Source: Candidatus Aenigmatarchaeota archaeon
GTDB taxonomy: Archaea > Aenigmatarchaeota > Aenigmatarchaeia > QMZP01
Length of the DNA: 40,312 bases
Direction: 5' to 3'
Assembly (NCBI GenBank): GCA_030615165.1
Contig: JAUWZW010000002.1
Coordinates: 1-40,312, forward strand
Shown: positions 15,830-25,233 of the stretch, piece after piece
How the letters are laid out: every line of letters starts with the position of its first letter
Position numbering within the stretch: position 1 is the stretch's first letter
Notes under the pieces: model-generated
Told to the model about the DNA's origin: nothing
What the model saw: the letters and a program-made list of their open reading frames with translations, nothing else
Database searches by the model: none
Made by a program: the position numbers and the translations under genes

Positions 15830-16567
15830 ATGAGAAAGGCGTTTTCCTTGATTTCAGGGGTTTTGTTTCTGGCAATCACCATAACAGCGGTTGTTGTTGT
15901 ATATCAAGCCGGGATGCCCATCGTCAAGAGGATGCAGGTATCTGCAGCAATAGAGCAGATGAAAACAACATTTGTAGAGCTGGACGAGCTGATAAGACAG
16001 ATAGCAGCTGAGGGGGCTGGTTCCAAGAGAGCGGTTCAGCTGAGGGTGGACCCGGGCAAGCTCATAGTTAATGAAATCCAGGACTCTATTTACTGGGAAC
16101 TGGAGACATATGCAATGATTATCTCACCGAGAACCAAACAGCAGTTTGGCAACATTGCTGTGGGTTCAAATCTGAATACAAGGGTATATGAGGCAAACTA
16201 TACAAGGGTATCACCGGAGATTAAATGTTATGTGATGGAGAATGAACATCTGAAGGTTTATGTGAGAAAGGTAGGTGTCAACACATCTCAAGACGGCTGG
16301 GAGAATTTCAACACAAGCTCACTTGTCATTGCAATCTACAACAAGGATATGAATGAATGGCTTGAGAATGAGGGGTTTCTGGAGATAACAGTTGATGATA
16401 ATACAAATTCAAAAACAGGAAATGGCTATACAATACCACTCGAGACAGGGTACAATCTGCCGTATGGAGCGGTAACAGCACATATGAACTCCAGCTATCT
16501 CGCATACAGCATAAACTTCACCCTTGGGTCAGGTGCTGACTTTTTGGATATTGAGGCAAGCACCTAA
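15830..16567 (+). CDS. Class III signal peptide protein (minor pilin-like)
   Basis: MRKA/FSLISGVLFLAITITAVVVV N-terminus, several NxS/T sequons; N-terminal half resembles 28303..28986. Confidence 0.7.
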   Translation: MRKAFSLISGVLFLAITITAVVVVYQAGMPIVKRMQVSAAIEQMKTTFVELDELIRQIAAEGAGSKRAVQLRVDPGKLIVNEIQDSIYWELETYAMIISPRTKQQFGNIAVGSNLNTRVYEANYTRVSPEIKCYVMENEHLKVYVRKVGVNTSQDGWENFNTSSLVIAIYNKDMNEWLENEGFLEITVDDNTNSKTGNGYTIPLETGYNLPYGAVTAHMNSSYLAYSINFTLGSGADFLDIEAST

Positions 16568-16568
16568 T

Positions 16569-16692
16569 CCCTTTCTTTCGGGAAAGAAAGGTCTAAGGTA
16601 CAAAGGTCAAACATAGTAACGGTTTGAACCGTTAACCGATGAACATACGAACAGATGAATGTTTGAGCCTTTGTATTACCCCAAAGAAAGGG
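16569..16692. repeat. MITE-like palindromic element with a nested 77-nt hairpin insert
   Basis: Terminal IR ccctttcttt / aaagaaaggg. Without the 16599-16675 insert it matches 25146-25188 in the tRNA-Ile intron. Confidence 0.65.
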
Positions 16693-16751
16693 AGATTGTA
16701 AAGCAATGGGTCAATATATTAACAGGGCTCATAGCTCAGCCCTGAGCCTTT

Positions 16752-16827
16752 CACAAAGGTTAAGCAAATAACAGTTCAAACTGTTAATTGATGAACAGAT
16801 GAACTTATGATCGCTTAAGCCTTTGTG
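16752..16827. repeat. Second copy of the 76-77 nt covarying hairpin element
   Basis: cacaaagg-ttaagc...gcttaa-g-cctttgtg with inner taacagt/actgtta hairpin; homologous to 16599-16675. Confidence 0.7.
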
Positions 16828-16856
16828 GCTTACCCAAAAAATATGAGGAAGATATT

Positions 16857-17336
16857 ATGAAAAGAATGAAGGCAATATCACCGCTGATTTCTGCAGTCAT
16901 GGTAATCCTAATTGCATTTGCTTTATCCGCTCTCATAGCTCCCTGGGCGTTTGAGATAGCAAGGCAGCAGACAAACCAGACAGGCGGCTATGCAGAGCAG
17001 CAGATGATATGCCAGAACACAGCATATGACTTTGATACAAACTACGGGACAAACGGCGTTAATTGGACCTCTACAGGAACAAACGATAATTTAACTGTAA
17101 AGATAGTGAATACGGGATATCAAAATCTCTACAATTTCTCATTTGAACTTGTGATAAATGACACAGTTATATTGCGTCCTGATGTAACAGATGCGACCCA
17201 GAAGACAAGTATAAATCCTCTGGAACCTAGTCAGAGTACTTTCCTCAATACAACAGCCAATATCAGCGGAACATTGAGTGAAGTCAAGATACTAAACATA
17301 GTTTGCCCGAGTGTTTATGCAAGGCAGGAATTGTAA
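16857..17336 (+). CDS. Archaeal type IV pilin-like protein
   Basis: MKA/ISPLISAVMVILIA class III signal peptide, IVNTG motif, two Cys, many NxS/T sequons. Confidence 0.85.
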   Translation: MKRMKAISPLISAVMVILIAFALSALIAPWAFEIARQQTNQTGGYAEQQMICQNTAYDFDTNYGTNGVNWTSTGTNDNLTVKIVNTGYQNLYNFSFELVINDTVILRPDVTDATQKTSINPLEPSQSTFLNTTANISGTLSEVKILNIVCPSVYARQEL

Positions 17337-19700: not shown

Positions 19701-19782
19701 TTAAGCCCGCAAGGCGGAGGAGGGTTGAACGCCAGCAAGTTCATATAAAGCGTTCTCCGTCATAGTTCGCAAGGCGGTATAC

Positions 19783-23049: not shown

Positions 23050-23256
23050 TTTGACATAGACGGAGTCGTGTCTCGTAGACACGAGATTGAGTGAGCTTTG
23101 CTCACGAAAGATGTGCTCACAACTCTTGTGCTGAGGCACAAGATCGCGCCTCGCTGGCGCGAGACGTCTCTGCGTCAGAGACGCAGACATATCTTCATCC
23201 AATGCAGAGGAGAGATGAAGATATATGTTCCCGTCAGAGTTCATAAGGCGAGGTTT
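23050..23256 (+). repeat. Array of at least six GC-rich hairpins (structured leader or REP-like array)
   Basis: Hairpins at 23066-23084, 23091-23105, 23124-23143, 23144-23162, 23169-23187 and 23189-23224, closed by gacgg (23059-63) / ccgtc (23231-35). Confidence 0.75.
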
Positions 23257-25012: not shown

Positions 25013-25233
25013 GGGCTCGTAGCTCAGTTGGTTAGAGCACCAACAAAATGGTATCTGGGTGTTCCCTGGATACTGCGGTGCATGTCTTATAATGGCTGTC
25101 CGCAACCAAGCCGTAGAAGCTGGCGGTCGAGGGTTCAAATCCCAACCCTTTCTTTCAAAAGGAAAGGTCTAGGCTTACCCCAAAGAAACACTTTACAAAA
25201 GAAACTGGGGAAATGAGAATCCCTCCGAGCCCA
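25013..25233 (+). tRNA. tRNA-Ile(UAU) with three introns (25043-25083, 25092-25117, 25140-25219)
   Basis: Splicing gives a 74-nt cloverleaf: acceptor GGGCTCG/CGAGCCC-A, D arm GCTC/GAGC, anticodon stem CCAGT/GCTGG with loop CT-TAT-AA, T arm GAGGG-TTCAAAT-CCCTC. BHB/BHL motifs at the junctions; TATA tttaaa about 25 nt upstream. Confidence 0.82.

Follow-up and report, generated by a model that had tools for sequence, protein, structure and literature searches.

Two closely similar hairpins lie between a pair of genes in the genome of an archaeon of the Candidatus Aenigmatarchaeota, and they differ from each other by base changes that keep their stems paired. What kind of sequence are they: a structured RNA tied to its neighbouring genes, or an element of another kind? 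The window, by which we mean the whole 40,312-nt stretch of DNA analysed here, is contig C74 of genome G000, an assembly of 958 kb in 75 contigs that is 82% complete.

Two hairpins in one intergenic spacer

The spacer between the ORFs at 15830–16567 (+ strand, 245 aa) and 16857–17336 (+ strand, 159 aa) is 289 nt long and houses both hairpins. A reading of the letters alone, referred to below as the sequence-only reading, had described the two neighbours as pilin-like. Their N-termini are indeed hydrophobic, and that of the downstream ORF resembles a class III signal, but Pfam matches stay below threshold (DUF7289 for the upstream ORF, 23.2 vs 27 bits; CARDB for the downstream ORF, 21.2 vs 22.7 bits), and both products are treated here as putatively pilin-like. 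The spacer contains no ORF of at least 40 aa except a 43-aa antisense ORF that overlaps the start of the next gene.

Copy 1 (16599–16675, + strand, 77 nt) and copy 2 (16752–16827, + strand, 76 nt) share an architecture of an 8-bp outer stem, a bulged G, a 6-bp second stem and a 7-bp inner hairpin. The outer stem pairs 16599–16606 with 16668–16675 in copy 1 and 16752–16759 with 16820–16827 in copy 2; the second stem pairs 16607–16612 with 16661–16666 and 16760–16765 with 16813–16818, respectively. The bulged G is located at 16667 and 16819, and the inner hairpin of copy 1 spans about 16617–16634. These positions and stems, bulge included, are exactly those first proposed, and alignment of the two copies (82% mean column identity, flanks included) bore out the four compensatory differences said to distinguish them: T-A in copy 1 vs C-G in copy 2 at the outermost pair, C-G vs T-A and A-T vs G-C in the second stem, and G-C vs A-T in the inner hairpin. 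The pair had been called tandem; the copies are direct and 153 nt apart, but 76 nt of other sequence separate them.

Both hairpins fold well. Copy 1 reaches −23.6 kcal/mol (z −4.95) and copy 2 −27.3 kcal/mol (z −6.05), and in neither case did any of 200 shuffles match the value. Folding is no worse on the reverse strands (z −5.47 and −7.49 for copies 1 and 2), so it picks no strand. The initial failure to recognise a family was echoed by Rfam 15, which returned no match above threshold in 16400–17000 (best sub-threshold E 1.5–8.8), and a hammerhead or other ribozyme was set aside for want of any Rfam match. ARAGORN found no tRNA in the window. A further short hairpin lies between the copies at 16723–16744 (+ strand); its core (16725–16739, 15 nt) resembles the 5′ end of a tRNA gene at 25013, and a related-strain contig that matches 16708–16739 continues into tRNA D-arm sequence.

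R1, a dispersed repeat family with complementary arms

The sequence-only reading had named a lack of other copies as a ground for doubt; further copies were found across the genome. Iterated nhmmer searches located 13 loci in G000. A covariance model built from 11 core copies recovers these (68.9–93.9 bits, with 86.2 and 88.9 bits for window copies 1 and 2) together with two variants, on contigs C13 and C45 (33.7 and 31.4 bits). Searching for the terminal motifs brought two more, a short form of 58 nt whose termini are the same (C67:20021–20078) and a fragment at the end of contig C48. The family, which we call R1, thus has about fifteen copies scattered through G000 and is not a local pair. 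We found no description of it among the papers retrieved on MITEs in Aenigmarchaeota or in DPANN archaea, but the supplementary MITE lists of PMC11602168 could contain it.

The unit is 76–79 nt long (58 nt in the short form), and core copies are 52–85% identical in pairwise comparison (median 66%). Its layout consists of 16–17-nt terminal inverted repeats around an asymmetric core of about 45 nt. Heptamers of the TTAACNG type recur in this core, where CCAATGAACAG and TATGATTGC are conserved; it has a polarity as well as conserved motifs that are unpaired. In the alignment of the 11 core copies, 87.6% of cells pair, compared with 77.4 ± 1.4% in shuffles, sliding the 3′ partner lowers pairing to 26–52%, and the observed covariation score was reached by 0 of 500 shuffles. 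The signal lies in the outer stem, where 7 of 14 pairs change on both sides and 91% of cells pair. The inner hairpin is only moderately supported (80.5% paired) and a mutually exclusive alternative helix scores the same (80.0%), so we treat only the outer stem as established.

We then compared the arms directly, each 5′ arm being aligned with its own 3′ arm in reverse complement. Across 239 aligned positions in 15 copies, 224 are Watson-Crick pairs, one is G·T, six are A·C and eight are other combinations. In the outer 8 bp, the two arms of one copy complement each other at 7.75 of 8 positions and arms from different copies at 5.43 of 8, and 16 copies display nine different outer arms. In 11 of the 15 copies the extra base is a G that bulges from the 3′ arm; it lies on the opposite arm in C42, is replaced by a mismatch in C72 and in both copies of a related genome (G016), and is a T in C57. 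Near-exclusive Watson-Crick pairing together with strand symmetry is the pattern of DNA inverted repeats and not that usual for RNA helices. The C42 copy (C42:2420–2497), with its extra base on the 5′ arm, looks as if the core had been inverted between the terminal repeats; 19 nt separate the end of this copy from the start of an oppositely oriented gene of 829 aa.

The repeated motifs of the core had suggested something else. GATGAA(C) does occur twice in each window copy, as had been pointed out, and copy 2 alone contains TGATGA (16789–16794); with GATGA present twice in both copies, R1 might be a family of stand-alone small RNA genes of box C/D-like or K-turn type that bind L7Ae. The hint dissolves in the wider family: of 16 copies, one has TGATGA, three have GATGA and four, all of them other than the TGATGA copy, have CTGA, and none has C-like and D-like boxes in the C/D arrangement. 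Rfam snoRNA models match at 15–21 bits against cut-offs of 50–85, mostly outside the element, the bulge is a single base rather than a three-base bulge with tandem G·A pairs, and one copy lies inside an ORF. We give the small-RNA explanation almost no credence. What survives of the proposal of a conserved structure with compensatory changes is the covariation of the outer stem; a dedicated structured RNA with box-C or K-turn motifs is unsupported.

The core could also be read as DNA. The TTAACNG/CNGTTAA heptamers and the paired termini might form dispersed binding sites, operator-like and placed near genes. No structural variant of the core lacks the heptamer, whether the short form, C13 or C45, and two exclusive hairpins with equal, moderate support fit repeated sites better than a single RNA helix. 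Against this, we found no candidate binding protein, the copies are not tied to one regulon, and the heptamers could equally serve a mobilising enzyme; binding sites of this kind seem to us very improbable.

Outside G000 the family is rare. Among 40 relatives the R1 model matched only G016, with two copies, that is, 2 of 41 genomes when G000 is included. Within the taxonomic family, R1 is found in 3 of 47 genomes, namely G000, G016 and, as a weak copy with a divergent core, G041; the exact termini pattern is present in 1 of the 91 genomes of the order. A strict pattern hit two loci each in genome and metagenome collections, and these four loci score the same with R1 as the two G016 copies and are taken to belong to the G016 organism. 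Viral contigs gave no match to two R1 patterns. The distribution is patchy and restricted by lineage. Both G016 copies sit within one shared composite type of about 190 nt (L017 1400–1700 and L019 1400–1700), in which a second nested hairpin precedes the copy and one more palindrome follows it, a mosaic that resembles bacterial BIMEs.

R1 enters DNA as a discrete block

All-against-all BLAST clustering revealed many small intergenic repeat modules in G000, among them about 13 units of a module named Fam2, and three R1 copies (C18, C13 and window copy 1) interrupt such modules. Aligned with two uninterrupted paralogous modules, the C18 copy appears as a clean 76-column gap, as does the C13 copy against three uninterrupted paralogs. 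In the window, alignment with paralogs assigns the 5′ half of a Fam2 module to 16568–16598 (+ strand), where a hairpin at about 16570–16591 directly follows the stop codon and is itself followed by TCTAAGG; the 3′ half, with its tail, occupies 16676–16722 (+ strand) and begins TTACCCCAAAGAAA. Copy 1 sits between TCTAAGG and TTACCCC of Fam2, where it places 77 nt against the one base that follows TCTAAGG in five uninterrupted paralogs, a gap read by eye since the MAFFT alignment left it unopened. The inserted block starts and stops with the hairpin stem, and the variable outer stem is therefore part of the R1 unit.

No direct repeat of at least 2 nt flanks R1 in these three filled/empty comparisons (C18, C13 and copy 1), which use paralogs, so that a 1–2-nt target duplication could escape them. 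Nor do the flanks of 13 R1 copies share a consistent repeat or a common motif. Two candidate duplications were considered and rejected. A 9-nt direct repeat around copy 1 is better explained by the split halves of the Fam2 hairpin, and a TA duplication of the IS630/Tc1 type is contradicted by the 7 of 16 copies that end CA…TG (with a mismatch in one arm of C52), since the relation of these ends is inverted and not direct.

Related strains provide a second kind of comparison at the window locus. Their contigs, from two of four DNA runs of one study and with flanking genes roughly 88–98% alike, join 16567 to 16863 through 27–32 letters vs 295 in the window. The joining letters closely match 16828–16856 (+ strand); we take this stretch, which includes a GAGGA motif for ribosome binding, as the short leader that the downstream gene had originally. 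What the window has in addition is accordingly a block of 260 nt, absent from the related strains, that runs from the stop codon up to its right edge at the 3′ end of copy 2. Judged from these contigs alone, a deletion in the related strains in place of an insertion in the window would be formally possible. One related-strain contig has two units joined head to tail.

Two further loci add to the picture. The spacer between the S27e and aIF2alpha genes is 131 nt long in G000, where it holds an R1 copy; in the 24 relatives with both genes adjacent, none of them with an R1 match, it measures about 60 nt or less in 19 and contains 67–324 nt of unrelated sequence in the other five. The C57 copy lies inside an open VanZ-like ORF (PF04892, 33.8 bits vs a cut-off of 30.1), to which it adds 24 residues relative to the G009 homolog, and conserved sequence resumes in frame afterwards. 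In all these comparisons the 'empty' sites are paralogs or related strains and not one strain before and after. Counting against the insertion reading, no two R1 copies are near-identical, the maximum being 85%, so the copies give no sign of having moved recently. Taken together, the comparisons show that the R1 unit enters DNA as a discrete block bounded by the ends of its hairpin stem, without a target duplication of at least 2 nt, and we consider R1 very probably a lineage-restricted, non-coding, insertion-type palindromic repeat of MITE- or REP-like character.

The intergenic regions that R1 enters are themselves built of modules. Fam1, with about 30 copies, consists of GGAGGGTTGAC, a variable hairpin, CCGTAAAG, GCAAGGCGA, 4–5 nt and then the gene start (examples are window 19718–19776, C35:2460–2527, C38:2384–2454, C18:39978–40019 and C22:5181–5234). 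Protein genes, and on C22 a tRNA gene, follow it directly, and its 3′ part is found before aIF2alpha in genus G004 as well; Fam1 may be a promoter or leader cassette. In G004 the position upstream of aIF2alpha that R1 occupies in G000 is taken by another hairpin, rich in G+C, after which comes the same Fam1-type leader, and the S27e–aIF2alpha site seems to attract hairpin insertions. A tRNA gene at window 25013–25233 (Rfam tRNA 17.5 bits), missed by ARAGORN, is apparently interrupted several times, its T-loop being split by a long form of Fam2 of about 80 nt. On C15, C58 and C34 the same module comes after sequence that resembles a T-arm, and it is found between protein genes too, which suggests a mobile intron-like module. 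At window 23080–23240, runs of stacked G+C-rich hairpins belong to the dispersed families Fam5 and Fam13.

The genes around R1 bear on whether the hairpin acts in RNA. Copies are found upstream of a ribonucleotide reductase gene, in the S27e–aIF2alpha spacer, between genes for RNase HII and a hydrolase, after a tRNA, between two more genes whose products have hydrophobic N-termini, in the interior of the VanZ-like ORF, and in three convergent and two divergent spacers. Archaeal markers recognised from translations (ribosomal proteins S27e and L44e, aIF2alpha, Alba and an RNase P subunit) adjoin R1 copies. Where the neighbours are co-directional, R1 is sense-oriented in 6 of 7 loci, the exception being one G016 copy; this is a weak trend (one-sided binomial p about 0.06) that could be a sign of a role at the RNA level. 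In six loci the 3′ end of R1 lies 14–43 nt upstream of a start codon.

These features, together with the compensatory changes that preserve the long stem and the conserved unpaired motifs of the core, would fit a cis-acting structured UTR RNA, in which the hairpin is selected within mRNA as a stabiliser, processing site or translational barrier and copies are spread or retained for that role. Several observations argue against it. Wobble pairs are nearly absent from the arms (the single G·T vs six A·C), and folding is as good on one strand as on the other. The genes beside the copies have no relation to one another (ribonucleotide reductase, aIF2alpha, RNase HII, tRNA, putative pilins and the interior of a VanZ-like ORF), and related strains do without the element at the window locus. 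The start-codon distance has a simpler explanation, at least for the 23–33 nt seen at C18, C52 and C13, where R1 has inserted at one position of another repeated module that itself keeps a fixed distance to the gene. Some copies lie between convergent genes, and at one locus (C46) a canonical TATA-like box follows the element. We consider a cis-acting RNA an unlikely account of the family. The last two points also weighed against a mobile promoter, a candidate raised by the A/T-rich TATGAT about 20 nt before the 3′ end of R1; this motif is weakly TATA-like and variable, and we rejected the idea. On the insertion-repeat reading that we prefer, transcription of host genes would carry R1 along as a stable stem-loop in mRNA.

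Known repeat systems and candidate mobilising enzymes

Which kind of insertion repeat does R1 resemble? MITEs are the nearest large class. Their definition in PMC11602168 includes a 2–10-bp target duplication, as classical DDE-type MITEs have, and the same text places DPANN genomes among the most MITE-dense of archaea; PMC10969869 lists Correia elements of Neisseria among prokaryotic MITEs, with archaeal ones in Sulfolobus, Halobacterium and Haloquadratum. R1 is small, non-coding, multi-copy, mostly intergenic and lineage-specific, its terminal inverted repeats form a long hairpin, and it inserts beside gene starts and into other repeats. At 58–79 nt it falls within the MITE range of about 50–800 bp of non-coding sequence, its 16–17-nt arms, with one bulged base, agree with the terminal inverted repeats of at least 10–15 bp usual for MITEs, and its 13 loci and two further forms are dispersed with presence/absence variation. 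Two MITE properties were not found: neither the three filled/empty comparisons nor the flanks of 13 copies contain a 2–10-bp target duplication, and the 82%-complete assembly holds no autonomous partner, that is, no longer element with R1 termini, an absence that from an incomplete MAG is weak evidence. A fuzzy search for the termini, with up to two mismatches, returned noise only. A further difference from MITEs is that the terminal 8 bp of R1 vary in a compensatory manner; a DDE transposase that recognises a specific sequence would presumably not accept such variation. For Correia elements, inversion and cleavage by RNase III are described in PMC10969869; the C42 copy of R1, with its bulge on the opposite arm relative to the core, is reminiscent of that inversion.

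REPINs, which RAYT tyrosine transposases mobilise, match other properties. A REPIN has two inverted REP units, each of them a short palindrome, on either side of a spacer, and the cognate RAYT gene is single-copy and flanked by the repeats. In PMC3116915, compensatory changes across the hairpin are called 'common' in REPINs, and like R1 these are extragenic palindromes of about 80–100 nt that form a long hairpin, lack a target duplication, and build clusters and mosaics with other small repeats. G000 also encodes a RAYT-class protein. R1 differs in that its arms pair with each other and are not REP-type self-palindromes, in having no GTAG/CGTC tag, and in numbering about 15 copies and not hundreds; moreover, no R1 copy flanks the RAYT-class gene or lies on its contig. 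The Rickettsia palindromic elements (RPEs) described in PMC10969869, of about 150 bp and with 44 found in genes of one genome, can likewise lie in frame in a protein gene and lengthen its product, as the R1 copy does that contributes 24 residues to the VanZ-like protein. Only 1 of about 15 R1 copies is intragenic, however, and there is no sequence similarity to RPEs.

IS200/IS605-derived miniature elements lack terminal inverted repeats and insert on the 3′ side of a fixed 4–5-nt target; the PATEs of Haloquadratum, derived from IS200/IS605, are hairpin-dependent and have no terminal duplication. R1 shares the missing terminal duplication and the dependence on hairpins, and G000 has a TnpA and TnpB pair on C22. 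R1 differs by its long inverted termini and motif-less flanks, and the C22 element contains no R1-like sequence. The latter (C22:3000–8096) is an IS200/IS605 element with divergent tnpA and tnpB, situated between two tRNA genes, at least one of which apparently contains an intron.

For the origin of the R1 copies we propose an enzyme supplied in trans that moves R1, or once moved it, and that would read the hairpin or the paired termini. Such reading would account for arms that drift in sequence but keep their complementarity. The assembly offers few candidates. It contains one DDE_Tnp_1 gene (C56), whose inverted repeats are unrelated to those of R1, no DDE_3 gene, the IS200/IS605 TnpA and TnpB pair on C22, and, on C33 (3274 nt), an IS110-type transposase gene together with the RAYT-class Y1 gene. 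The RAYT-class protein scores 82 bits with NF047646 (cut-off 80), and its gene needs a frameshift in a T-run near its start; C33 has a G+C content of 44.9% vs 43.6% for the genome and is putatively archaeal. No R1 match lies near either Y1 transposase gene (C33, C22). A 14-nt identity between the core of copy 1 and a site 40 nt downstream of the RAYT-class ORF was noticed post hoc and, as a link between R1 and that gene, is a lead only. A co-occurrence test across 47 genomes failed to connect the two: within the taxonomic family the RAYT-class gene has a single homolog, in G023, a genome devoid of R1, and the gene is absent from G016 and G041, which do carry R1 (these genomes are 70–91% complete).

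On circumstantial grounds, namely the compensated termini, the conserved bulge and the missing target duplication, a structure-reading HUH/Y1-like enzyme fits R1 better than a sequence-specific DDE transposase. Taken further, Archaea might have in R1 their first REPIN-like system, in which a HUH/Y1 enzyme that recognises structure would move the repeat as single-stranded DNA; either the RAYT-class gene on C33 or the IS200-type TnpA on C22 would be the candidate. This would account at once for the missing target duplication, for the single-base bulge that is conserved and for termini that covary freely yet stay paired; we regard it as a speculative proposal with the odds well against it.

R1 is thus a new family of a known kind of element and not a new RNA gene. 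This removes one false lead, namely that pilin genes might be accompanied by a new family of regulatory RNAs or by an RNA that binds L7Ae. For genome analysis, repeats of the R1 type break MAG assemblies, and screens based on covariation can mistake them for covarying RNA structures. The more interesting question becomes what moves an element with covarying termini and no target duplication in an archaeon. Compensated variation of the termini, combined with the missing duplication, points to a mobilisation mechanism that reads structure, which, according to a passage of bioRxiv 10.1101/2021.07.10.451892, has not been reported for archaea. For the organism itself, the family means that a DPANN genome of roughly 1 Mb still carries small insertion repeats, and that these can split operon spacers, nest in intergenic modules and lengthen a membrane protein in frame. 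In intergenic regions as unusually modular as these, co-option of R1 hairpins by the host as mRNA punctuation is a possibility.
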